Assembly: GCF_036365525.1 (NCBI RefSeq)
Contig: NC_090380.1
Coordinates: 77,749,784-77,813,783, forward strand
Length of the DNA: 64,000 bases
Source of the DNA: Heterodontus francisci
Taxonomy: Eukaryota
Direction: 5' to 3'
In this document: positions 12,331 through 60,261 of the stretch, in pieces
How the letters are laid out: each line of letters opens with the position of its first letter
How positions within the stretch are numbered: the first letter of the stretch is position 1
The notes under the pieces: generated by a model
Told to the model about the DNA's origin: nothing
Databases searched by the model: none
Seen by the model: only the letters and a program-made list of their open reading frames with translations
Position numbers and translations under genes: made by a program

Positions 12331-12564
12331 TCATACAATCAGACGAGAAAATCTATTTGCTGCTTTTTTCCTACTAAACATATTAACAAGGCTCTTTTTC
12401 TCTTGTTTTGGCTCTGGAGACTTGCACATATTGATGAGAGGGACAGGCTTTGACCTATGCTCTGTCACATTGTATGAACAGGTTTTCAGATGTTCTGCCA
12501 TGCTGGGGATGTCACTAAACCTCCAGTTGTCAATGGTAGAGAAGACAGAGCTGAACTGCCACTT
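12331..12564 (-). CDS. fbxo40: F-box only protein 40-like, last coding exon (KWQFSSVFSTIDNWRFSDIPSMAEHLKTCSYN...RLIV*)
   Basis: Acceptor ttttattacag, phase 0, 78 codons including the TGA. Matches the FBXO40/FBXO30 C-terminal pattern W.FS..FS....W.F....SM.EHLK.C. Confidence 0.92.
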   Translation of the reverse strand, partial: KWQFSSVFSTIDNWRFSDIPSMAEHLKTCSYNVTEHRSKPVPLINMCKSPEPKQEKKSLVNMFSRKKAANRFSRLIV

Positions 12565-14309
12565 CTGTAATAAAAAGAAAGGAGGTCACAGTTTTATTAA
12601 TTCAGATTGATCAGTACTATTGGGTTCAGACACAAGGTGCAGCTTGCAAAAACATATTGTACAAGTCAAAGGTATCCTGTTCTATACACAGGTGGTTGGT
12701 GTGATCTTTGAGCAACATGAATAGCAGTTTTAGGGGATGAAGTCAGTACAAAGCCAAATGGGATTCCCGAGAGGAGGTAGTCTCATTCCATTTAACATGG
12801 AACATTGACACCAAATTTACACCCCAATGGGTTGAGTTTCTACTTGTTTCCGTTTGTTATATCAGTGCAATCCAGGAAGAATTGGCCAAAACAGCTCAAA
12901 AGATCAAGGAATTTTAAATGTGAGTTACACCCAAGACCATTCACACTCATAGTTCCCATGATCTTTTATACTGGTTCAAGATTAATTTCACCCAGATCAG
13001 ACCCCAACAACAAAAGTAGTCATGCCACCAGGGTAATATTGTGAGGTTCCACTGATTGTGCGGGAAGACTCTTCAAATGGTGTTCATTTCCTTAGGTGCA
13101 CTGGCATATTTTTAAAATATTTTCATATTATAAATGGATCAGTATAGTTTTCTTTTAAGTAATTTTCAGTGTTTTTAAATCACGTTACTCATAGGTGGAG
13201 GACTGGACACCCTTAGTAGAAATGCTTATTTTTGGTGATAAAACCCATTTTCCGCTGTATTAATAAAACAGCACCAGGTTAATGCTCTTAAATACATTAA
13301 GGAATACCTTTTAATGGAAAGAACAAAAAGAAACAATTACATTCTATTATGCTGCCAAATTTGGCAAGATTGATACTTCCCATTTGTCACACAGCTGTGA
13401 TTGCTTTACAAAAACACTGCTTCGTGGAAAATTTTACATTTGTGATAATGCAAATGGTTTTAGCAGAAACAAAAAGTGTGACATAACTAGTGCTATTTCA
13501 AGTGCATTTTGGCTGCAATTATTCTATTGTGGCCAAAGCAGACACTTCACCTTCACAAATTTAAGTTGACACAAAGGCAAAACCAGTTCGCACTGATGCG
13601 AACTACTACAATGTGAATGCACTACTAACTTTCAGCATACCACTCTCTCCACTAACATGGAAATCATGTTGCAGTAAGTGGTCTTCTAAAAGAAAAACTG
13701 GAGTTTTTTGTGCAGTTAATTTCAAACAGTAACATTTATGAAATTAATTTGATGCTATAACTCATATTTAATCCTTTCCCACCTCATAAGTCTTTAAGTG
13801 CCATGCACTTTTGGCAGCTGAGAAGACAAGCTAGGGACCCACTCACAAACATCCACTAATGCTGTTTTACAGCCAGCTGCAAGCAGGAGTGTGATAACAA
13901 GAGCTAACAGACTGATTTCTCTCTTTGGTAAAATTAGTGCCTCCCCATTATATCACAGCTGTAACTACATGAGGAAAATCAAAACCATGAATCCCTGAAA
14001 TGTCTTGAGTGCTGTTTGTGCTTTAACACAAAATACTGACAGAATCCTGAAGGAACACTGGTGAGAATGAATCAAGATTGTTTCACATGTTCAAGTAAGA
14101 CCCCCCACTAGCAGTGGTGCTGCCAGCAATGCACTAGTAGTTTTGTCATGTCTTCCAAATGCAAGGAAACTCTCTACCCAAAGGGTAGCCATAATTGCAC
14201 TGGTTGAGGTCTTGGAGATGACAGCAACTTCAAGAGATGGTCAATCAAGAGCTCCAAATTTCAACAGGTCATATAACCCAATCTGACTGATTCACCATAT
14301 TGAAGGTAT

Positions 14310-18469: not shown

Positions 18470-18749
18470 CTTCAATCATTAACTGAAGAAGTGAATTCCA
18501 CAGCTGCAAAAATGTCTGTGTAAAAATATTTCTGCTGCTCCCTGTCATAAATCTCTTGCTTGCATTTAATCTTATATCTGTGTCCCCTTATTCTAAGCTC
18601 CACAATCACTAGAAATAGTCTGTTTCTATCTACTGCTTCACATCCCTTCATAATCTTAAACACCTCTGTTAAATTATCACATTGCCTCCTGTATTCTAAC
18701 AAAAGCAGTCTCAAATTTCACGTCTTTCTTCTTATTTGCATTTCCTTAT
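18470..18749 (-). mobile_element. CR1-like LINE 3' fragment, the target of the LTR element; continues at 22049-22090
   Basis: LEYRRQCDNLTEVFKIMKG...RIRGHRYKI. The sequence resumes after the LTR element (ACCAGGCAACGTTCTTGTGAGTCTG). Confidence 0.75.
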
Positions 18750-19010
18750 TGTTGTGTGATTGCCTTTAAGAGTAATGTACCTTTAAGATCTTAGTATGCT
18801 AATGAGCTAAATACCAGGACGTAGTCATGTGACTACATGCCAGTGCCACTCTAACTGTAAAACTAAGAGGCAAGACTTGCAAACAGATAGCATCTGTACT
18901 GTATATATTAGTTTGCTGTTTAATAAACCCTTCTGAGATCTTCAACCATCTGAACTCCAAGCATCTCATTTATGTTGCATCAGACAACATAAAAGAAGCT
19001 TTTCATTGCA
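18750..19010 (+). repeat. 5' LTR (261 bp)
   Basis: TGTTGTGTGATTGCC...CATTGCA. Direct repeat of 21782-22043; contains TATATA and AATAAA motifs. Confidence 0.93.
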
Positions 19011-19025
19011 TGGTGGCAGCTGTGG
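19011..19025 (+). other. Primer-binding site, tRNA-Leu(AAG/TAG)-like
   Basis: TGGTGGCAGCTGTGG matches the complement of the tRNA-Leu 3' end (TGGTGGCAGCGGTGG, recalled sequence) at 14/15 positions, immediately after the LTR CA. Confidence 0.75.
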
Positions 19026-19750
19026 TGAGAAAAAAAAATCCAAGTTTGAAGACCACAGGGAAACAGCTTTTAAAAATGACTTTCCTACAGCCACTGGAGA
19101 GAGAGAGTTCAAAACATACTGACTCAAACAAGAAAAACAGAAGAACTTACCTCAAGCTGGAGAAGACAGAGCGCTGACTGACAGGCTGCGAATCAATCAC
19201 TGTGATCCAGTGACTCAGTGTGCTGTCGGTAGAGAATTACCAGTTGAAAAAAAGAGAAGCCTTGAAGTCCTTAAAAGATTGATTTCTTTTTCTCTCAAAG
19301 GCTCCCTGAGAGAGTTAAAAATATGGGGAAGACCCAATTCTTTTCTTAGGCTGATTAAGTCCGCACCATTACAGGAGGCACCCAACAGCAAAAAAGCACA
19401 GGAATCCTCCATTCATGCAGCTCGCAGCTGGAGCTATAAATAGAAACAATTGAATCATTCCAATTCACTCAACTTGAGCTTTTAAAAAACTCATAAAACC
19501 ACGCAACCAGGAAGAATTGCCTGTTGAATGGCTATATAAATAAACTGCAAAAACGGCACTTGAAATACCTATTGCTTAGCTGTGTAAACAGAACAGGCTT
19601 TGTGCTGAAAGCTAGACAAACAGACAAGCTGCTGCTGTCAATCAAATCAGCCAAAAGAGTTTCTTAAAAGGGAAACCAGTACAGAGTCACAGAACCAGGT
19701 CTTAAAGCAAGTTCTTAAAGCAAGCTTTAAAGCACAAAAACAGCAGGAAC

Positions 19751-21180
19751 ATGGATACCAATTTTCCTAGTATGAACTGGAAAACCTTGGATATCCTATC
19801 CAACCAAGTAATCACAGAACAAGAAAAACAAGCTCTAAAAATATTAATAGCAATTAGAAATGAAGGATTGCACAGTATCAATATCTGGAATATCTGAACA
19901 GGACCAGAAAGATCTCTCAAAGATATGGAAAGTGCAGAAAAATCAGCTCCAATTCAGAGTGAATTTTCAAATGCATCACCTGGAATTGATGTCCTACAGG
20001 CAACAGCCATGGGAATCAATAGACTAGTTCATCAGCAGATGCTGAAGTAAGGGCAACTAATGCGATTTATCAGAAGCTGAGCTGTAAGACCGAATAATGG
20101 ATCGTGATCGTATCAACACCCATTGAAGCATTCCTGAAAGACCTCTTAGGGAAAAAGAAAGGTCACAGCATCAACCTACTGCTGGAAGATGGCAGGAAAT
20201 ATGAAGACATTGTAGCCAGACAACAGCACCTGCAAGCACCAGGTACAGCCAACAGTTTCGTCACTTTAACAAAGTCGAAAAGAGCAAGCAAGATGTGTGG
20301 TAAATGTGGTTGGTCCCATTCACAGCGAAGTTGCCCTGCATTTCGAGACCTGTGCAAGGCGTGCGATGTAAAAGAACACCGGGCCCGCCTATGCAGGAAT
20401 TCTGGCTCCAAAAACAAAGCCAGAAGTCATGGTTGGACGCAAACAAACAGAGAACACAGCAACAGCAGCAAGGAAAGCGCCAGAGACCAGCATAAACGCA
20501 AACCGATACACAAAGTCCACAGCAAAACAGTCCTCAGACAAGACTCAGGTAGGAGAAAGTCTCAGACGAGCAAGCATTCCACATTGTGAAGCTGACACAC
20601 CATATCGATGAAGTCCAACAAATGAAAGTTTTCACCACCATCAATATCACATGCCCAAAGAAAGCTGGCAAACAGACACTGAAGGTCAAGATGTACCAGA
20701 GTCATTGGAAGTCTATGATACAATCGACAACATAACAAAATTTGAGGAAAACTTTTTTCACCCAGAGGGTGGTTGGAATCTGGAACACACTACCTGAAGG
20801 GATGGTAGAGACAGAAACTCTCACAACATTTAAGAAGTATTAAGATGAGCACTTGAAACACCATAGCATACAAGGTTACAGTCCGAGTGCTGGAAAATGG
20901 GATTAGAATAGATAGGTGCCTGATGGCCAGCATGGACACGATGGGCCAAAGGGCCTGGTTCTGTGCTGTATAACTCTATGACTCTAACTGCCAGGTTATC
21001 TGCTTACAACGGGTCACCCATCCCTTTCAGTGGCACACTAACAATGCAATGCAGATATGGCAAGTCTGCATTTAAACCACAATTGTTCTACCTAGTAGAC
21101 GTGAGCAGACCAGCAGTGGCAGGACTACCAGCGTGTAAGGACCTCAACATCATCACCAACCACGAGAGCATTGCCAAGAG
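19751..21180 (+). pseudogene. Degenerate gag and aspartic-protease region of the LTR element
   Basis: Start MDTNFPSMNWK; double zinc knuckle CGKCGWSH...CPAFRDLCKACDVKEHRARLC; protease C-terminal half RLSAYNGSPIPFSGTLTMQC...FYLVDVSRPAVAGLPACKDLNII. The catalytic DTG segment after LKVK appears deleted. Confidence 0.85.
20732..20985 (+). mobile_element. CR1/HER1-type LINE 3' fragment inserted into the protease region
   Basis: TTTTTCACCCAGAGGGTGGTTGGAATCTGGAAC...CTGTGCTGTATAACTCTATGACTCT. Removing it restores QSTTARLSAYNG. Confidence 0.85.
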
Positions 21181-21184
21181 GAAA

Positions 21185-21681
21185 TCTCCAAGGACCGGAA
21201 CCCACTCGCTGACTCTGATGGAAACCCAGCAACAACACAACTATGCCGTGTCTTCACCTCAGTTCTCTAGAGAACCACCAGCACCACAATGAGCCAGAAT
21301 GGACAGGTACCTCCATGAGACCAAGTACTCTTTCCCCAACAAGTCCTCAACCATGAGCCCCAAGCCTTCAGACGCGGAGGATGAGGAGAGGCTAAAAACA
21401 CGCAATGCCCTGAAAGGCAGAGGAGGAATGAGTTGAAGCATTGTCAGTTGGCTCTTCGAGATGAGGTGCTGGAATTTTCCAAGAATGTCAAGGCCTCAAA
21501 GGTGGTCATCTTGAGAAAATCAACAGAGTATGTTAGCAGGCTGAAGGCAGAGCAAAGGAACCTGAGTGCAGAGAGGGAGAAACGTCAGAGAGAACAGCAA
21601 CAGATGAGACACAAAGTCCCTGAGCAAGAGTTATCAAACCACCAAGACCACCTTTGGACTTTTGAGCCTCTATTCTTGTAA
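21185..21681 (+). pseudogene. Myc-family C-terminal region (Myc box IV, NLS-like stretch, bHLH-leucine zipper) with one stop and one frameshift
   Basis: QQQHNYAVSSP...PPAPQ*ARMD...SPKPSDAEDEERLKTRNAL[1-nt deletion]ERQRRNELKHCQLALRDEVLEFSKNVKASKVVILRKSTEYVSRLKAEQRNLSAEREKRQREQQQMRHK. Collinear with the c-/N-Myc exon 3 product (HNYAAP, SDxED, LERQRRNxL, KAxKVVILKKATxY). Confidence 0.93.
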
Positions 21682-21781
21682 ATTTCATAATCTCTAGCCA
21701 TGTGTAAATAATTTTGATGTTATCTAATGTTATGTATTTTTACAGTTAACATACAAGTCTTACCTTTGGAAAGAAGGGGGA

Positions 21782-22043
21782 TGTTGTGTGATTGCCTTTA
21801 AGAGTAATGTACCTTTTAAGATCTTAGTATGCTAATGAGCTAAGTACCAGGACATAGTCATGTGACTACATGCCAGTCCCACTCTGTAACTGTAAAACCA
21901 AGAAGCAAGAACTGCAAATAGATAGCTCTGTACTGTATATATTAGTTAGCTGTTTAATAAACCTGTTTGAGATCTTCAACTATCTGTATTCCATGAATCT
22001 CATTTAGGTTGCATTAGACAACATAAAGAAGCTTCTCATTTCA
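21782..22043 (+). repeat. 3' LTR (262 bp), preceded by PPT 21768-21781
   Basis: Direct repeat of 18750-19010. Confidence 0.93.
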
Positions 22044-23154
22044 TTTATACCAGGCAACGTTCTTGTGAGTCTGTGCTGTACCCTTCCTCTGAGCTTAAGA
22101 TAGGAGAGATTTTTCCATGGGGTAGATTTTCTGTGGGGGTTCCTCGATCTCTTGCCATAACTTCGGTGGAGGATTGTTGGGAATCTGGGAAAATAGCGTA
22201 GATGGCCATTTATGCCATTTTCCTGGGATTTCTGCCAATCTTACAGCGGGAGATTGGGACAACCCCTACAAAAATTCCTGGCACAAGTTTAACTTCCCTT
22301 TTCTTCCCCAGTTGGATATTTGGCACTTTGACCTCTGTCCTGTCCATGGGCTGGTCAATAAGGCGACCAATTAAGCTGGCTACTAACCCTCCACCCTCAC
22401 TCACAGAGGCAAAGATTTGCTGGCAACTAACCACTGCTGGGCCCAAATGCAGTCTGTCTTCCCAATCTGATTCTAACATAGCTGCACAGAGTATAAAACT
22501 CTTGAAAGAGGCATTTGTTTCTCTCAAATTGTATAATGGATCTATTTTATGAGTATGAGGAGAATAAAAAATTAAGAGAGAAATACATTTCTGCAAGTTT
22601 AAATAAAAAGAAGTCAGGCTGTGCTGTATTAGCTTTAAGTTGGTTGTCACATTTGCTTTGGACATGGAAAAATTGACCATAGAGAAAGTTGAAACCAGTA
22701 AGTGGTAATACTTTTGTGGAAAGAAATAACATCCTATTAAAAATCCAATTACAAAGATTAGATCCAAAATGTTGCTTAGTGCATAGATGACTTTTTTGGT
22801 TTTATTTATACGTTAGATTTTGAATAGTGGCTTATGGCAAAAATAAAATGTGGAAAATGTAGTATGTGGATCTAATGGGTCAAAGGGAATACTGAAATAC
22901 TATTCAGCATGGGCTATCGGTATTTATGGAGGCCTTGCTTAGACTGTCTTAAGCACACTGATGCTCTGTAGATGATAATAGATTAAGAAAGAAGGATGGG
23001 TTCCATAGATGGGATAATCAGGAATATGGCATTAATGTGAAAAAATCACAGATCAAACCACCATAATGTAATAGACCTGTTGTGAAATCACCATTCTGTG
23101 TTTAGTTTCTGAGAATTCCAACTGTGGTAATAACATTTTAGAAACAAATTTTTT

Positions 23155-23640: not shown

Positions 23641-24438
23641 AAGTTAGTTTAGGTGAAAGGAATGAGCAGCAACCAGTTGATAGCACCCAGTTGATGAGCT
23701 TAAAGGGTGATTGTACCAGCCCCTGGACATTGGGGGTTGTGGCAGGGGGGCCCTGAAAATGCCTCCGTTGGAGACCCGCCATGGGCCTCGACGCTGGGAA
23801 GACCCTGTCCCATATTAACGGTGGTGGCGAGGCCTCGTGGTGGCCCACCCACCACTCAGCAATGGGACCATCACTTCAATATGATAGTTAATTAAAATTA
23901 GGAATAATTACTTACCTTGCCGCGCCGGCCGTCCCGCTCCCATATTACGGTCAGTGGCTGGCACTCCCACGCCGTCCGATCCCCGACCACTGAAGAATTT
24001 TGGAACACTGGTGGGGAGGGGGGAGCAGGTATGTTTTCAGGGCAGGGGGGAGCAGCATTAAATGATTCTGATTGCTCGAGGGGGTGATAGGAAGGGGTAA
24101 AGGTAAAAGTTTCTGAACTTTGGGGCAGGGGAAGGTCAGGTACTGAAGGTAACTATTTTGGGGGGGGAAGAGGGCAGGAATGACATGTAAGGCTATTGGG
24201 GGAGTGGAGAGGGAGTGGAAAGTTTTTTTTAATTAGTTTTAATAATTTTAGATTAACTGTTTCTTTAAAGATTTAACTTGTCATCTTCGTTTCTATAAAC
24301 TCTTTTACATTGAATTACATTTAATTAGGCCAAATATGGCTACACTGGCATAGTCTCAATTATAGATGCAAGCAGGCAGCTTTTCAGGACTTTTCTTTAA
24401 AAATTTAAACTCTGATCAAGATAAAGAAATGTACTTAC

Positions 24439-26346
24439 CCGTTTTCGAGCTCTCCAAGAAAAGCTTCCATGTGAGTAACGTTTCCTTTCCCAGACAAGAA
24501 GGACCATGCCACGCTCTTGCAGTAAAGTGGAAGAGACCTCATTCATCAACACAGACACTTGGGACAACTGAGCTAGGCTATAGCTGTCCAAGAAGCTTGC
24601 AATGTGCCTGAGTATCTCAGATGGAAGACTGCTCAAACTAAGCATATTTTTCCCATTTTCCCATATATTTCGATCCTTGTGACTGTTCTGACACAGAACT
24701 TCAGGAACATCTGGTTTGACTGCAAACGTATTTTGGTGCTGGTTATAGATCACCTTAGCCTTCTGCATGGAGGGGCAGAATCTCCGTTGTGAGTAGGAAC
24801 AGCCAAGATAAGCCAGAGGACATCTCTCTACCATCCATCCATTCAGGCATGACTGAATGTCAGCATGCACATTCTTGAAGTGTGATGAAAACTCATCTCG
24901 CCTGAAGAAATGGTGACACATAAATGTAAAGGCAGAATTCAATTTGTTGTGTCTTTTAGTGATACACTCTGTCTGTAGTTGCAGATATAGACAAGAGGCT
25001 TTCTCTGCTGCTACATCGGCCAAAGATACATCACGGCCAAAAGGAGCAGAGGGGAAAGAATATGTCTGAGTGGCAAAATCAATGGTCTGTCCATCAGTGG
25101 CTTTTGTTTCTGATATAACATGGCCTTTTAGCACTTTTTCCAAATAACATAGTAATGAAGTAGTAACTTCATCATTTTGATGACTCTCTGTGTCCAGGTC
25201 AGAAGTGTCCACAGCTTTGTTCTCCTTTTTGACCTTACTTGACAATGAATCTCCAATAAGTCTACGTTTGGCACGGTAGCTGGTAGGAACTTTAAATGTA
25301 TTGACAGTTCTAACATCCTGGGCCTCCAGTTTCCCATAAACAAAGTCTTTTTCTTTGGGTGTGCATGCTTTCATCTGGCCAAATCGAATAAGCATACTGC
25401 CATGATGCACCAAATACATATTGAAGTGTTTTGTATCCATCTGAGCTTCTAGCCTTTCCAAAACACCTTCCTGCCAAGGAGCTTCACCTGTCTTTTCTAC
25501 TGATGCTGACAATGCTGGGGCTGACATAATGGTTTTATTTTCAGATAAATTGTTCTTTTTTTCAGTGCTGGCTGATGAAGTCTCACTCTTCTGCTTCGTT
25601 TTAACTTTTGTAGTTTTCTCTTCAATGGCACAGCTACCTTTATCCTTACTGAAAATGTGCTCCCAATTTGAATACATAGCTAAACATCCTACCTCATTGG
25701 ATTCTGCAAGAGCTTTTTGTTCTTCCAGGGTGAGTTCAACCATCTCTTCCAAATCTGCGTTGACTTCATCATTTCCATCTTGATGTATTTTTGTTCCTGT
25801 TTCAAGAAAAGTCCTATCCAAAGATACAGAAGCAACCAGCTGTCCTCCCACTGCCTCCTCTTCATTCAAATCCAAATCAGTTTCATCAACTGTCTCGGCC
25901 ATCTCTGGGAAAAGTTCAGCCATCTTCACTGAATTGAAAAAAATCCCCTGATCCCTAATTGCAGTTCCTAAGTCCAGATCCTCTGGATTCAAGGATTCTT
26001 TGATGGCACTATTTTTTAATGTTATGTCATCTTCATTAGCTGGCCAGCGGTTCCATTGCATTGAACAGCACACAATGCTGGCAGGACAGACACGAAGGTG
26101 CTTGGAGAGTTTGTGGCGTGCCATGAAGAAGGGGCAGCCAAAGGCTGCATTTAGGCAAGGGACATGTTCCAGTGGACATAGTAGTGTATGTTCATTCTCC
26201 TTACACTGGTGAAAAACAGCACCACACTTGGAAGGGCAACTGATCACCAAACAGGAAACAGAAGGTTCAAAAGACTTTTTGCAGTGCTGACTATAACACT
26301 TTTCACAGTGCATGTGCAGTCGAGGAGTCAGATTTCTATTTCTAAT
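24439..26346 (-). CDS. fbxo40: F-box only protein 40-like, large exon (TRAF-type zinc finger, central domain, F-box)
   Basis: 636-codon open frame: HCEKCYSQHC...CGAVFHQCKENEHTLLCPLEHVPCLNAAFGCP...HLRVCPASIVCCSMQWNRWP; FRRDEFSSHFKNVHADIQSCLNGWMVERCPLAYLGC; F-box LSSLPSEILRHIASFLDSYSLAQLSQVS. Acceptor ttctatag, donor CGG|gtaagt, both phase 0. Confidence 0.95.
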
Positions 26347-42139: not shown

Positions 42140-45058
42140 TCCCACTGGCAGGACAGACTCACCAGAGGTGGCAGTTGGGAGGGAGTTGCCCTGAGAGTTC
42201 TCAACATTTTCTCCGGACCCCATAAAGTCTCATGGCATCAGGTCAAACATGAGCAAAGAAACCTCCTGCTGATTACCACCTACCACCTCCCCTCGGCTGA
42301 TGCATTAGTGCTTCTCCATGGTGAACACCAATTGGAAGAAGCATTGAGGAATGTACTCTGGGTGGGGACTTCAATGTCCTTCACCAAGAGTGGCTCGGTA
42401 GCACCACTACTGACCAAGCTGGCCGAGTCCTAAAGGACATAACTGCTAGACTTGGTCTGTGGCAGGTGGTGAGGGAACCAACATGAGGGAAAAGCCTACT
42501 TGACTTCATCCTCACCAATCCACCTGTCGCAGATGCATCTGTTCATGACAGTATTGGTAGGAGGGATCACCGCACAGTCCTTGTGGAGACAAAGTCCCAT
42601 CTTTACATTGAGGATACCCACCATCATGTTGTGTGGCACTACCACTGTGCTAAATGGGATAGATTTCGAACAGATATAGCAACTCAAAACTGGGCATCCA
42701 AGATGCGCTGTGGGCCATCAGCTGCAGCAAAATTGTACTCAACCACAATCTGTAACCTCATGGCCTGGCATATTCCCCACTCTACCATTACCATCAAGCT
42801 GGGAGACCAACCCTGGTTCAATGAAAAGTGCAGGAGGGCATGCCAGGAGCTGCACCAAGCATGCCTAAAAATGAGGTGTCAGCCTGCTGAAGCTACAACA
42901 CAGGACTACTTGCATGCCAAACAGCGGAAACAGCATGCAATAGACAGGGCCATGCAATCCCACAACCAACGGATCAGATCTGAGCTCTGCAGTCTTGCCG
43001 CATCCAGTCGTGAATGGTGGTGGACAATTAAACAACTGACAGTAGGAGGAGGCTCCACAAACATCCCCGTCCTCAACGATGGGGGAGCCCAGCACATCAG
43101 TGCAAAAGACAAGGCTGAAACATTTGCATCCATCTTCAGTCAGAAGTGTCGAGTGGATGATCCATCTCAGCCTCCTTCTGCGATCCCCAGCATCACAGAT
43201 GCCAGTCTTCAGCCAACCCGATTCACTCCATGTGATATCAAGAAATGGCAGAAGGCACTGGATACTGCAAAGGCTATGGACCCGGACAACATTCCGGCAA
43301 TAGTACTGAAGACTTGTGCTCCAGAACTAGCCGTGCCCCAGCCAAGCTGTTCCAGTACAGCTACAACACTGGCATCTACCCAGCAATGTGGAAAATTGCC
43401 CTAGTATGTCCTGTACACAAAAAGCAGGACAAATCCAACCCAGCCATTTACTGCCTTATTAGGGGCGACACAGTGGCGCAGTGGTTAGCACCGCAGCCTC
43501 ACAGCTCCAACGACCCAGGTTCGGTTCTGGGTACTGCCTGTGTGGAGTTTGCAAGTTTCCCTGTGACTGCGTGGGTTTCCGCCGGGTGCTCCGGTTTCCT
43601 CCCACAGCCAAAGACTTGCAGGTTGATAGGTAAATTGACCATTGTAAATTGCCCCTAGAAAGAAGAGTATAAATGGGTGGTTGTTGGTCGGCACAGACTC
43701 GGTGGGCCGCAGGGCCTGTTTCAGTGCTGCATGACTCTATGATCGTCTACTCTCGATCATCAGCAAAGTGATGAAAGGGGTCATCGACAGCGCTATCAAG
43801 CGGCACTTACTCAGCAATAACCTGCTCATTGAAGCTCATTTTGGGTTTCGCCAGGGCCGCTCAGCTCCTGACCTCATTACAGCCTTGGACAAATGAGGTG
43901 AAGTGAGAGTGACTGCTCTTGACATCAAGGCAGCATTTGACCGAGTATGGCATCAAGGAGCCTCAGGAAAACTGGAGTCAATGGGAATCAGGGGGAAAAC
44001 TCTCCACTGGTTGGAGTCATACCTAGCACAAAGGAAGATGGTTGTGATTGTTGGAGGTCAATCATCTCAGTCCCAGGACATCACTGCAGGAGTTCATCAG
44101 GGTAGTGTCCTAGGCCCAATCATCAATGACCTTCCCTTCATTATAAGGTCAGAAGTGGGGATGTTCGCTGATGATTGTACAATGTTCAGCACCATTCGTG
44201 ACTCCTCAGATACTGAAGCAGCCCTTGTCCACATACAGCAAGACCTGGACAACATCCAGGCTTAGGCTGATAAGAGGCAAGTAACATTTGCACCACACAA
44301 GTGTCAGGCAATGACCATCTCAAACAAGAGAGAATCTAACCATCTTCCCTTGATGTTCAATGGCATTACCATTGCTGAATCCCCCACTATCAACATCCTA
44401 GGAGTTACCATTGACCAGAAACTGAACTGGACCAGCCATATAAATACTATGGCTACAAGAGTAGGTCAGAGACTGGGCATTCTGCAGCGAGTAACTCACC
44501 TCCTGACTCTCCAATGCCTGTCCACCACCTATAAGGCACAAGTCAGGAGTGTCACGGAATACTTGCTTGGATGGGTGCAGCTCCAATAACACTCAAGAAG
44601 CTCGACACTATCCAAGACAAAGCAGCCCGCTTGATTAGCACCCCATCCATCACCTTAAACATTCACTCCCTTCAACACCAACGCACAGTGGCAGCAATGT
44701 GTACCATCTACTAGATGCACTGCAGCAACTCACCAAGGCTCCTTTGACAGCACCTTCCAAACCTCAAACTGCAACCTTTGCCAGCTAGAATGACAAGGGC
44801 AGTAGATGCATGGAAACACCACCACCTGCAAGTTCACCTCCAAGTCACACACCATCCTGACTTGGAACTATATCGCCGTTTCTTCACTGTCCAAAATCCT
44901 GGAACTCCCTTCCTAACAGCACTGTGGGTGTACCTACACCCCAAGGACTGCAACGATTCAGGAAGGCAGTTCACCACCACCTTCTCAAGGGCAATTAGGG
45001 ATGGGCAATAAATGCTGGCCTAGCCAGAGACGCCTACATCCCATAAACATATTTTTTA
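42140..45058 (+). mobile_element. CR1-like LINE (endonuclease remnant, RT, 3' UTR)
   Basis: PWFNEKCRRA; KAMDPDNIP; ALDIKAAFDRVWHQG; QGSVLGP; FADDC; tail GCAATAAATGCTGGCCTAGCC. Confidence 0.92.
43461..43741 (+). mobile_element. HE1-type V-SINE nested in the LINE
   Basis: GGGGCGACACAGTGGCGCAGTGGTTAGCACCGCAGCCTCACAG (A box) ... GGTTCGGTTC (B-box-like) ... V-domain. Confidence 0.9.
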
Positions 45059-52689: not shown

Positions 52690-55330
52690 TTTTTTTATAC
52701 GTTCATGGAATTTGAGCGTCGCTGGTAATGCCAGCAATTGTTGTACATCCCTAATTTCCTTTGAGAAGGTGGTAGTGAGCCACCTTCTTGAAACGCTGTA
52801 GTCCATCTGGTGTAGGTACACCAACAGTCCTGTTAGAAAGGGAGTTCCAGGTTTTTGACCCAGTAACAGTGAAGGAACGATGATATAGTTCCAAGTCAGG
52901 ATAGTGTGTGGCTTGGAGGGGAACTTGCAGGTGGTGGTGTTCCCATGCATCTGCTGCATTTGGTCCTTCTAGGTAAATGAGGTCATGGGTTTGGAAGGTG
53001 CTGTTAAAGGAGCCTTGGTGAGTTGCTGCAGTGCATCTTGTAAATGTTACACACTGCTGCCACTGTGCATCGGTGGTGGAGGAGTGAATATTTAAGGTGG
53101 TAAATGGAGTGCTGATCAAGTGGGCTGCTTTGTCCTGGATGGTGTCGAGCTTCTTGAGTGTTGTTGGAGCTGCACTCATCCTGGTAAGTGGATAGTATTC
53201 CATCACACTCTCTGACTTGTGCCATGTAGATAGTGGACAAATTTTCAGGAGTCAGGAGGTGAGTTGCTCACCACAGATTTTCCAGCCTGTGACCTGCTCT
53301 TGTGGGCACAGTATTTATATGGCTGGTCCAGTTAACTTCCTGGTCAACAGTAACCCCCAGATTGTTGATGGTGGGGAATTCATCGATGGTAATGCCTGTT
53401 GAACATCAAGGGGAGATGGTTAGATTCTGACTTGCTGGAGAAGATCATTGCCTGGCACTTGTATGGCATGAATGTTAGTTGCCACTTATCAGCCCAGGCC
53501 TGGATGTTGCTGCATGCAGGCACAGACTACTTCACTATCTAAGGAATTGCAAATGGTACTGAACACTGCAATCATCAGCGAATATCCCCACTACTGATCA
53601 GATGATGAAGCAGCTGAAGATGGTTGGGCCTAGGACATTACCGTCAAGAACTCCTGCAGTGATGTCCTAGGGCTGAGATGATTGGCCTCCAACAATCACG
53701 ACCATCTTCCTTTGTACTAGGCATCAGTCCAACCAATGGAGAGTTTCCCCTGATTTCCATTGACTCCAATTTTGCTAGGGTTCCTTGATGCCACACTTGG
53801 TAAAATGCAGTCTTGATGTCAGGAGCAGCACTTTTGTTCATGTTTGGATGAGGACTGTAATGAGGTTTGGACCTGAGTGCCCTTGGCAGAACCCAAACTG
53901 AGCATCGGTGAGCAGGTTATTGCTGAGTAAGTGCTGCTTGATAGCACTGTCAACATCACCCTCCATCCCTTTGCTGATGATTGAGAGTAGACTGATGGGG
54001 CAGTAATTGACAAGAATGAATTTGTCCCGTGTTTTGTGACAGGACATACCTGGGCAATTTTCCACATTGTCGGGTAGATGCCAGTGCTGTAGCTGTACTG
54101 GAATAGATTGACTAGCGGCGCGGCTAGTTCTGGAGCATAAGTCTTCAGTACTACAACAGGGATATTGTCAGGGCCCATAGTCTTTGCTGTATCCAGTGCC
54201 ATCAGCGTTTCTTGATATCACATGGAGTGAATCAAATTGGGTGGAGACTGGCGTCTGTAATGCTGGAGACCTCAGGAGGAGGCTGCGATGGATTATCCAC
54301 ATGGCAGTTCTACCTGAAGATGGATGCAAACGTTTCAGCCTTGTCTTTTGCACTCATATTCTCCCCCATCATCGGTGATGGGGATATTTTTGGAGCATCC
54401 TCCTCCAGTTAGTTGTTATTGTCCACCACCATTCTTGACTGGATGTGGCAGCACTGCAGAGCTTTGATCTGATCCGTTGGTTGTTGTGTCGCTTTGCTCT
54501 GCCTATTGCATGCTGCTTCCACTGTTTAGCATATATGTAGTTGTGTATTGTAGCTTCACCAGGTTGGAACCTCTTTCTTAAGTATGCCTGGTGCTGTTTC
54601 TGGCATGCTCTCCAGCACTCCTCATTGAACCAGGGTTGGTGGTAATCGTAGAGTGAGGGATATTCAGAGCCATGAGGTTACAGATTGTGGTTTAATACAA
54701 TTCTGATGCTGCTAGTGGCCCAACAGCACCTCATGGATGCCCAGTTTTGAGTTGCTAGATTTGTTCTGAATCTATCCCATTTAGCAAAGTGGTAGTGCCA
54801 CACAACACACTAGAGGGTATCCGCAGTGTGAAGACAGACTGTGCGGTAGTCACTCCTACCAAGACTGTCATGAACAGATACATTTGCGACAGGTAGATTG
54901 GTGAGGGTGAGGTCAAGTAGATTCTTATTGGTGCTTTCACCACCTGCAGCAGGCCCATTCTGGCAGCTATGTGCTTCAGGACTTGACCAGCTTGGTCAGT
55001 AGTGGTGCAACCGAGCCACTCTTGATGATTGGCATTGAAAACCCCTCCACCCAGAATGCATTCTGTGCCCTTGCTACCCGCCATGCTTCTTCCAAGTGAT
55101 GTTCACTTATTCATCAGCTGGGGAACGGCAGTAGGTGGTAATCAGCAGCAGGTTTCCTTGCCCATGATTGGCGCGATGCTATGAGATTTCATGGGCTCTG
55201 GAGTCAATGTTGAGGACTCCCAGGGCCACTCCCTCCTGACTATATACCACTGTGCCAGTGGGACAGGTCAAACTCAAGGATGGCAATGGAGGCCTCTGAG
55301 ATATTGGCTGTAACATATGATGGGTGAGTT
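52690..55330 (-). mobile_element. CR1-like LINE, same family as 42140-45058
   Basis: ALDTAKTMGPDNIP, QFGFCQGHS, AAPTTLKKLDTIQDKAA, plus the shared 3' tail. Confidence 0.9.
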
Positions 55331-56612: not shown

Positions 56613-57568
56613 TTAGATTTTACCTGTTTTTAACACTCCTGTTGTCTAATATCTATAATTCTTCTCAAACTCTGCAATCTTCTCCCTTTGTGCATCACAT
56701 ATTAAACTTCTGACTTATAAACTCCCAACACACCATCTTCAAAATAAAATCATTTTTTAATGTACTGCTACATTGTGTTTTTTGGTTCCATTTTTTTCTT
56801 GATTTTTATCATTTTAAACATGAAAATGAAATCTTAACAGCTTTTTAAATTGACATTCAAAATTGCCTTAATTCCTTATATGTTATCAAGCCATTATACA
56901 TAAGTGTACATTTCACACATTTTCAGAAGCCACTGTATATTTGTATATTTACACATTTTTGGAAGCCATTGTACATCCAGTTGCTTGTAGGGAGAATGTA
57001 TTGACACATTTGGGTCACTTGTATCATTGCTTGCATTGGGAGCAGTCAGGCCAGGAAGTTAAAGCAGTTTATTTGGTCTTGGTTTCTGGGAATTCATTAG
57101 ACTTGGATGCAGGGGGGAGCCTCAGTCTGTATTGGTTATGTCAGTTACGCCTGCATTCATGGCCAACAGTTGAGTTGCTGTGTTATGAGGGGGGCAGTGG
57201 GATGGATGTGGGTTGGATTGTGAGGTTTCAAGAATAGGCCACAACTATAGAGTCATAGAGCACCGAAACAGGCCCTTCGGCCCATGTCTTTGCTGGCCAT
57301 CAAGCACCTAACTATTCTAGTCCCATTTTCCAGCACTTGGCCCGTAGCCTTGTATGCGATGGCATTTCAAGTGCTCATCTAAATACTTCTTAAATGTTGT
57401 TAGAGTTCCTGCCTCTACCGCCACTTCAGGCAATGTATTCCAGATTCCAACCACGCTCTGGGTGAATTTTTTTTCCCCCAAATCCCCTCTAAACCTCCTG
57501 CCTCTTACCTTAAATCTATGCCCCCTGGTTATTGACCCCTCCTCTAAGGGAAAAAGTCTCTTCCTCTT

Positions 57569-58161: not shown

Positions 58162-60261
58162 AAAAATAAAAGCAAAATACTGCGGATGCTGGAAATCAAA
58201 CAAAAACAAGAAATGCTGGAATCACTCAGCAGGTCTGGCAGCATCTGTGGAAAGAGAAGCAGAGTTAACGTTTCGGGTCAGTGACCCTTCTTCGGAACTG
58301 ACAAATATTAGAAAAGTCACAGATTATAAACAAGTGAGGTGGGGGTGGGGCAAGAGATAACAAAGGAAAAGGTGCAGATTGGACCAGGCCACATAGCTGA
58401 CCAAAAGGTCACGGAGCAAAGGCAAACAATATGTTGATGGTGTGTTGAAAGACAAAGCATTAGTACAGATTAGGTGTGAATACACTGAATATTGAACAGC
58501 AGCAAGTGCAAACCTGAAGAAAAACAACCTGAAAAAAACAGTGGGTAAGCAAACTGAACAAACTAAGGTGAAATGAAATAAATGCAAAAAAAGATTGTAA
58601 AAAATGTAAAAAGGAATGTAAAAAAAAGGAAGAAAAAATAACTAAAAATGAAAGTAAAATGGGGGGCTGTCATGCTCTGAAATTATTGAACTCAATGTTC
58701 AGTCCGGCAGGCTGTAGTGTGCCTAATCGGTAGATGAGATGCTGTTCCTCGAGCTTGCGTTGATGTTCACTGGAACACTGCAGCAATCCCAGGACAGAGA
58801 TGTGAGCATGACACACCAATTTCCACCCTTCTCTCACCTTTACATGGTCCATCTCTGACACTTCCCTTCCCTTCCTCAAATTCTCTGTCTCCATCTCTGG
58901 GGATAGGTTGTCTACTAATATCCATTATAAGCCCACCGACTCTCACAACTACCTCGACTACACTTCTTCACACCCTACCTCCTGTAAGGACTCCATTCCA
59001 TTCTCCCAGTTTCTCCGTCTCCGACGCATCTGCTCTGATGATGCTACCTTCCATGACGGTGCTTCTGATATGACCTTTTTCCTCAACCGAGGATTTCGCC
59101 CCACTGTGGTTGACAGGGCCCTCAACCGTGTCCGGCCCATTCCCCGCACCTCTACCCTCACCCCTTCCCCTCCCTCCCAGAACCGTGACAGGGTTCCCCT
59201 TGTCCTCATTTTCCACCCCATCAGCCTCCATATCCAAAGGATCATCCTCCGCCATTTCCGCCACCTCCAGCGTGATACCACTACCAATCGCATCTTCCCC
59301 TCCCTTCCCCTGTCAGCATTCCGAAGGGATCGTTCCTTCCGCGACACCCTGGTCCACTCCTCCATTACCCCCACCACCTCGTCCCCGTCCCATGGCACCT
59401 TCCCCTGCAATCGCAGGAGGTGCAATACCTGCCCATTTACCTCCTCTCTCCTCACTATCCCAGGCCCCAAACACTCCTTTCAGGTGAAGCAGTGATTTAC
59501 TTGTACTTCTTTCAATGTAGTATACTGTATTCGCTGCTCACAGTGTGGTCTCCTCTACATTGGGGAGACAAAGTGCAGACTGGGTGACCGCTTTGCGGAA
59601 CATCTCCGCTCAGTCCGCAAGCAGGACCCTGAGCTTCTGGTTGCTTGCCATTTCAACACTCCCCCCTGCTCTCATGCTCACATCTCTGTCCTGGGATTGC
59701 TACAGTGTTCCAGTGAACATCAACGCAAGCTCGAGGAACAGCATCTCATCTACCGATTAGGCACACTACAGCCTGTCGGACTGAACATTGAGTTCAATAA
59801 TTTCAGAGCATGACAGCCCCCCATTTTACTTTCATTTTTAGTTATTTTTTCTTTTTTTTCTTTACATTCTTTTTTACATTTTTTACAATCTTTTTTTTGC
59901 ATTTATTTCATTTCATAGTTTGTTTAGTTTGCTTACCCACTTTTTTTTCAGGTTTGCACTTGCTGCTGTTCAATATTCAGTGCATTAACACCTAATCTGT
60001 ACTGATGCTTTGTCTTTCAACATACCATTAACATATTGTTTGCCTTTGCTCCGTGACCTTTTGGTCAGCTATGTGGCCTGGTCCAATCTACACCTCCTTT
60101 GTTATCTCTTGCCCCACCCCCACCTCACTTGCTTATAACCTGTGACTTTTCTAATATCTGTCAGTTCCGAAGAAGGGTCACTGACCCGAAACGTTAACTC
60201 TGCTTCTCTTTTCACAGATGCTGCCAGACCGCTGAGTGGTTCCAGCATTTCTTGTTTTTAT
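58162..60261 (+). mobile_element. Penelope-like element: RT C-terminus, GIY-YIG endonuclease and 3' end (about 58811-60261), preceded by an inverted copy of the 3' end (58162-58810)
   Basis: STNIHYKPTDSHNYLDYTSSHP...IPFSQFLRLRRICS; C...RCNTC; FTCTSFNVVYCIRCSQCGLLYIGETKCRLGDRFAEH. 14-bp TSD TCCATCATAACCTC (58148-58161 and 60262-60275). Confidence 0.93.

Follow-up and report, generated by a model that had tools for sequence, protein, structure and literature searches.

The window, a 64,000-nucleotide stretch of Heterodontus francisci DNA, contains an LTR retrotransposon at 18750–22043 that carries a piece of a Myc gene where most of pol is expected (Table 1). Its surroundings are the last intron of an F-box/TRAF-zinc-finger gene, to which it is antisense; we take this gene to be FBXO40-like, with exons at 24400–26346 and 12334–12585 on the minus strand. 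All parts of the LTR-PBS-gag-protease-X-PPT-LTR unit given in a preliminary description of this DNA were located, and its target-site duplications (TSDs) match at four of five bases. The TG...CA LTRs, tRNA primer-binding site, polypurine tract and short TSD are features of Ty3/Gypsy elements. The two LTRs are identical at 238 of 259 aligned bases (K2P 0.086), and a tRNA-Leu(TAG) gene from the same genome has a 3' end that matches the PBS at 19011. A tandem array of tRNA-Leu-type genes that fits this PBS was seen at G000:C34:18727276-19004144, with a period of about 3,050 bp and about 85 units among the matches listed. The Pfam search recognised neither the protease nor the gag of this family. 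Other decayed retroelements occupy 42178–45052, 52697–55236 and 58812–59492 of the window; presumably these are LINE-like copies in inverted orientation, together with a frame that resembles the RT/endonuclease end of a Penelope-type element.

Table 1. Parts of the retrotransposon and its target-site duplications (window coordinates).
Feature	Position	Strand	Remarks
Left target-site duplication CTTAT	18745..18749	+	4/5 bases shared with right copy
5' LTR	18750..19010	+	261 nt, TG...CA
Primer-binding site (PBS)	19011..19025	+	complementary to tRNA-Leu(TAG) 3' end
5' leader	19026..19750	+	homologous to leader of full-pol parent, 71–75% identity
gag, with stops and frameshifts	19751..20600	+	two CCHC-like knuckles at about 20296–20394; weak zf-CCHC matches in sister copy
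Protease region	20600..21166	+	catalytic motif deleted at 20692 in window copy; split by insertion
Secondary insertion, window copy only	20732..20986	+	about 255 nt, dispersed repeat, LINE-like 3' end
Captured piece of mych exon 3 (551 nt), from nt 50 to about 521	21166..21615	+	box IV, basic region, HLH, leucine zipper
Integrase C-tail remnant of parent and 3' untranslated part	21616..21767	+	remnant out of frame with Myc
Polypurine tract (PPT)	21768..21781	+	
3' LTR	21782..22043	+	262 nt
Right target-site duplication TTTAT	22044..22048	+	

The Myc part of the window copy was recognised by the Pfam HLH profile (E=9e-09) and matched Myc (E=4.7e-14) and Max (5e-04) in the PDB, which identifies X as a Myc-family C-terminus, as first proposed. 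The end of the protease and the Myc part share one reading frame, also in agreement with the preliminary description. Its view that X lacks RT, RNase H and integrase holds for the RT, the RNase H and most of the integrase, but a remnant of the integrase tail begins at 21626. The Myc part had been placed at QQQHNYA. This is Myc sequence, but the true start at 21166 lies about 60 nt earlier, and the end is at about 21615.

The window copy belongs to a later, shortest deletion subfamily and is dead. In its Myc part, 21 nt are deleted at 21218, a stop codon stands at 21290, and a 1-nt deletion near 21411–21414 shifts the frame. The peptide LERQRRNELK, quoted earlier from the Myc part, is not genuine, because its reading crosses this 1-nt deletion and the family has Lys there. 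In the protease, a deletion of about 51 nt at 20692 takes out the DTG motif, the Asp of which is retained in 33 of 41 other copies. The insertion at 20732–20986 is missing from 20 of 20 sister copies and shows 86% identity to 57247–57466 of the window; we take it to be CR1.

The insert of the window copy is identical at 400 of 472 positions to exon 3 of a host gene on G000:C16. At the DNA level the insert shows 85% identity to this gene, mych, whereas its match to the c-myc-like gene covers 111 nt at 67%. The protein of the host gene is identical, over the stretch compared, to the Heterodontus francisci record 'myelocytomatosis oncogene homolog', and in the tree the gene falls within the cartilaginous-fish (shark and ray) mych clade (support 98/94), apart from c-, N- and L-Myc. 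By DNA identity and tree, the donor is mych, not c-myc; the preliminary description had spoken of a Myc proto-oncogene. L-myc or c-myc was also the first guess in the present analysis and was ruled out by the exon 3 identity, the protein comparison and the tree. The element copies cluster with the host gene in a single clade (88/97, not starred) that leaves the mych genes of other sharks outside, so the capture is probably younger than the split from the other sharks sampled. A Myc_N profile search gave 118 matches (1,625 candidates), namely three intron-containing host genes and more than 100 scattered partial matches, and the box I/II region was matched only at the three intron-containing genes. 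The host mych (L037, L041) has diverged surroundings of boxes I/II and a weaker Myc_N score than the c-myc-like and N-myc-like genes. None of the 118 matches was evidently an L-myc-like host gene.

The junction of the window copy is common to many loci. A 601-nt junction query returned 3,723 candidates, and all 40 that were scored span the query at 82–86% (the self match of 100% excluded). With up to 3 mismatches allowed, as in all pattern counts here, the window-type junction pattern had 236 genome matches (control 0) and the spliced exon 2|exon 3 joint pattern 668 (control 2), so that at least 904 junction-bearing copies were counted directly. The window-type pattern would detect just 4 of 20 sampled copies; as a rough estimate, there may therefore be about 1,200 window-type copies and about 2,000 in total. 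Forty-seven further Myc copies were examined: the 20 best window matches (biased to the window type), 7 matches of the profile search and 20 loci taken from the list of splice-junction matches. Window-type copies have identical Myc ends (21 examined). Among 13 Myc copies with two LTRs, nine have a TSD matching at four or more of five bases, each different, although a local duplicate may be among them. The junctions are thus shared by loci with differing TSDs and flanks, the pattern that the preliminary description had sought in a multi-copy family, and these many independent insertions lack RT and the integrase core, which makes the family non-autonomous. At one locus (L022), both LTRs precede the same flank, which would fit local tandem duplication better than a full insertion. 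Three Myc copies with nearly identical scores (L033-L034 region; G000:C40:1268049, 2476407, 2531782) suggest segmental duplication of one insertion. The median LTR-LTR K2P is 0.127 (14 elements) and the Myc-to-host K2P is 0.115 (28 copies); the similarity of the two values indicates that capture and spread were near each other in time, and old. A stop, frameshift or truncation was found in the Myc segment of 45 of the 47 copies, and two were without. The family is now inactive and decaying.

A full-pol parent was found by pairing protease and integrase-tail matches, which revealed elements with 2–3 kb in between. One of them, L042, has the same LTR, gag and protease as the Myc elements, followed in order by RVT_1, RT_RNaseH and rve, with no Myc and no env, and then by the integrase tail, PPT and LTR. 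Its pol order (protease-RT-RNase H-integrase) is that of Ty3/Gypsy. A full-pol partner with the same LTR, as looked for in the preliminary description, therefore exists, and its RT motif pattern had 1,177 genome matches (control 0). LTR divergence of the parent is 0.134, against the family median of 0.127. The shared LTR and the similar LTR divergence are consistent with mobilisation of the Myc elements in trans by the parent. The best named relatives of L042:2251-3594 are polyproteins of sea urchin, sea star and sea cucumber (49–54% identity over most of the query), and no shark name appears among the 120 listed of 252 protein matches. Judged from these protein matches, horizontal transfer of the parent from marine invertebrates is possible. 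The parent may belong to the Mag clade of Gypsy.

The least-deleted Myc copies preserve the original capture. They follow the parent up to the start of RT and then switch to host exon 2 at a shared stretch of 5–13 nt. The exon 2|exon 3 splice joint is exact and in frame in 7 of 7 such copies. The return to the integrase tail occurs at an imperfect shared stretch of 19–25 nt, upstream of the host stop codon. Both capture points are in frame in these copies; for the original 5' joint, the frame is kept in six of seven copies in one comparison and three of four in another. The ends of the Myc insert show no poly(A), no 3' UTR and no host stop codon. Later deletions shortened the element. A second 5' joint formed, again where a short stretch of sequence is shared, and is in frame in 10 of 11 copies; the window type, which has wholly lost exon 2, keeps the frame at its 5' joint in 20 of 21. 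On the 3' side, the most frequent deletion lies beyond the zipper and breaks the frame (0 of 23 copies with that junction are in frame), and the zipper is retained nearly to its end in all subfamilies. The junction types are nested and have derived substitutions in common. The removed intron, an insert between discontinuous halves of an element, microsimilarity at the switches and no poly(A) together form the signature of LTR-mediated retroposition in animals, as set out in the main text of Tan et al. 2016 (PMC5131818), and we infer template switching. The earlier proposal of a captured myc exon 3 is supported in that capture was at the RNA level and at microhomologies, but the original capture was longer and comprised the spliced end of exon 2 together with exon 3.

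The captured piece is without the parts that make Myc an oncogene, as far as can be read from the copies examined. The capture starts downstream of box II in all class-B copies whose exon 2 could be mapped (26 of 27), and boxes I and II are absent from 6 of 6 annotated copies. The Glu that reads the E-box is Lys in 92 of 100 listed copies (of 713 motif matches) and in all six annotated copies. At the E-box-reading His, a hand count of the same 100 listed copies gave Arg 46 times, Cys 20 times and His 33 times; this mix is as expected for an Arg codon decaying at its CpG. Both His and Glu are kept in 115 of 115 cellular Myc records scored. Of the 7 copies that have the original integrase tail, 4 retain Glu, versus 0 of 30 short-tail copies, a count that leaves out the window copy, whose 'Glu' is an alignment artefact of its 1-nt deletion. 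The swap therefore came later than the capture and belongs to the most widely spread lineage. In human Myc, the H359A/E363A mutant has the same two base-reading positions substituted; according to bioRxiv 10.1101/2020.05.04.076190, it still binds Max and DNA generally, misses the E-box and is dominant-negative when over-expressed. In contrast, the shark element has Arg and Lys at these positions, in a fragment without the transactivation domain.

Selection on the Myc part was assessed at several levels. Private substitutions gave an omega of 1.07. Lineage-level changes numbered 17 nonsynonymous to 11 synonymous (p=0.39 versus background; 47 copies; some of the changes are host-side). Nine of the 17 nonsynonymous changes are at codons invariant in shark and ray mych, and conserved HLH-zipper residues were also changed at the lineage level. 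Stratified omega was 0.73 (0.49–1.03) in 27 copies; L035, with its interrupted 3' end, was omitted from the stratified and lineage-level analyses. Lineage-wide stops in the Myc segment occur only at CpG hot spots. An early omega of 0.4–0.5 in shared substitutions was abandoned, as it reflected mostly recurrent transitions and CpG, was weaker when stratified and was gone at the lineage level (47 copies). The protease control showed the same omega pattern, and with one decayed parent copy as reference it cannot tell selection from artefact. At three of three separate 5' joints, the reading frame of gag-pro continues into Myc (chance 1 in 27). The two apparently earliest amino-acid changes are the two base-reading residues, with a chance of about 0.0003–0.008 that was calculated post hoc for what are possibly single events. 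The in-frame joints, the base-reading changes and the omega of 0.73 suggest that the fragment may have been translated and exposed to selection.

The captured mych fragment is probably cargo, disarmed or hitchhiking, in an element copied by a full-pol parent, and we prefer this reading to one in which it served the element as a tool and to one in which it was an MC29-like driver. A Gypsy-type LTR retrotransposon would have co-packaged spliced mych mRNA, and its reverse transcriptase would have jumped onto this mRNA near the start of the RT gene and returned within the integrase tail, both times at short shared sequences. The product would be gag-pro-(RT start)-mych-(integrase tail) in a single frame. 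It would have retained the LTRs, PBS, PPT, gag and protease, so that the RT and integrase of the abundant full-pol parent could copy and integrate it. Nested deletions would then have produced shorter subfamilies, with the window copy in the shortest. The Myc part would have had no transactivation boxes from the start, and the most-spread lineage would be without E-box reading (Glu to Lys, His to Arg). The swap in the basic region most likely either removed a cost to germ cells or hitchhiked with a fitter, shorter genome. This order of events and the passenger status are what we infer.

A tentative alternative, somewhat doubtful on present evidence, is that the Myc fragment was functional for the element. 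It would be translated in the polyprotein, freed or fused to the integrase tail, and would dimerise with Max; the residues turned basic would make it dominant-negative or a non-specific chromatin or nuclear-import tether that aided spread. The frame preserved at both capture points and through two later 5' deletions (6/7, 10/11 and 20/21 copies), the almost complete zipper in every subfamily, the loss of Glu from 4/7 original-tail to 0/30 short-tail copies against its constancy with His in 115/115 cellular Myc records, and the behaviour of the human double mutant all speak for it. However, no purifying signal was found at the lineage level, and conserved HLH-zipper residues were changed. The Glu swap may be one event and so be explained by hitchhiking, and the commonest subfamilies do not have Myc linked in frame to the integrase tail (0/23). 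On this alternative the retrotransposon would have domesticated the Myc DNA-binding and dimerisation module: selection on a translated fusion would have made the E-box-reading residues basic, and a Max-binding or chromatin-tethering protein would have aided the rise to thousands of copies. We hold such domestication to be possible at best, and if true it would be the mirror image of v-myc capture.

Many independent captures, L1-type retrocopies in elements, or segmental duplication of one locus might account for the several junction types, and L022 does resemble a local tandem duplicate, but this explanation is improbable. The junction types are nested with common derived substitutions, there is no poly(A), 3' UTR or host stop, and TSDs and flanks differ among loci. 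More unlikely still is an equivalent of avian MC29 that spread via Myc-promoted germ-cell proliferation. The layout is the same (gag fusion, pol lost, helper present), and zebrafish Mych has been reported to promote survival and proliferation. However, the gag-myc of MC29 has nearly the whole of c-Myc with boxes I and II, whereas the shark capture starts downstream of box II, boxes I/II are found in 0/6 annotated copies and the E-box Glu is lost in 92/100 listed copies, so the reading is largely refuted. The equivalence with MC29 drawn in the preliminary description therefore stands for structure (in-frame gag fusion, pol replaced, a partner) but not for function (mych, no boxes I/II, base-reading residues replaced in most copies). 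An assembly chimera or one-off event, which the preliminary description had named as the way its reading could fail, is refuted by the 236 + 668 loci and by contigs from other runs (X5 and X7, from a second organism label and two studies, and X10; 80% likeness, among 32 of about 1,800 pieces) that bridge the window-type junction with at least 31 nt on each side.

Several known systems resemble the shark element in part. The retrocopies in the main text of PMC5131818 are likewise spliced partial mRNAs between discontinuous LTR-element halves, with microsimilarity at the switches, no poly(A), sense orientation, in-frame joints and secondary retroposition; those cases are single or few copies, whereas the shark element has at least 904 in nested subfamilies and a proto-oncogene-family cargo. 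The words 'oncogene' and 'shark' are absent from that main text. Maize Bs1, as described there, also has host gene fragments in an LTR element with switch points common to all copies, but it is a plant element of one to five copies with three donor genes, while the shark element draws on a single vertebrate gene and is hundreds of times more numerous. Avian MC29 and related myc-transducing retroviruses share a gag-fused Myc that replaces replication genes, a short defective genome and the need for a helper, as outlined in PMC13431497; MC29 (protein P0122) is an infectious retrovirus with near-complete c-Myc. The host gene of the shark element is likewise in frame with gag in the place of pol, but the element is in the germline, is Gypsy-type without env, as is its parent, has mych as donor and retains neither boxes I/II nor an E-box-reading basic region. 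The Gypsy polyproteins of echinoderms and marine metagenomes (P0127-P0151) are similar over the end of gag, the protease and RT (49–56% identity), with a single gag-pol and the PR-RT-RH-INT order; unlike the shark element, they have no HLH domain in the listed Pfam matches.

Among annotated proteins, no gag-Myc fusion of another species was found in the 120 listed of 492 matches or in 6 longer matches. The literature search, which covered chiefly freely accessible papers, found neither a myc-bearing retrotransposon nor Myc cargo at such copy number, and a TE-annotation preprint naming the horn shark does not contain 'myc'. The capture mechanism itself, LTR-mediated retroposition, is already known. 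In the shark annotation, the family accounts for spurious 'N-myc-like' genes (P0002, P0004, P0006, P0009, P0010, P0012) and chimeric models. Two horn shark gene models, P0123 (TRIM-like) and P0125 (SLC2A10), are fused to gag or Myc pieces of the element; these are probably annotation artefacts, and exonisation is possible.

Oncogene capture is known from laboratory-isolated retroviruses, in which the intermediates are lost. In the shark germline the full series is preserved in fossil form, across hundreds to thousands of copies: the parent, the donor, both crossovers, the nested deletions and, later, the end of E-box reading. This family makes it possible to test what a captured Myc fragment means to a mobile element, whether it is costly, is simply carried along or is put to use.
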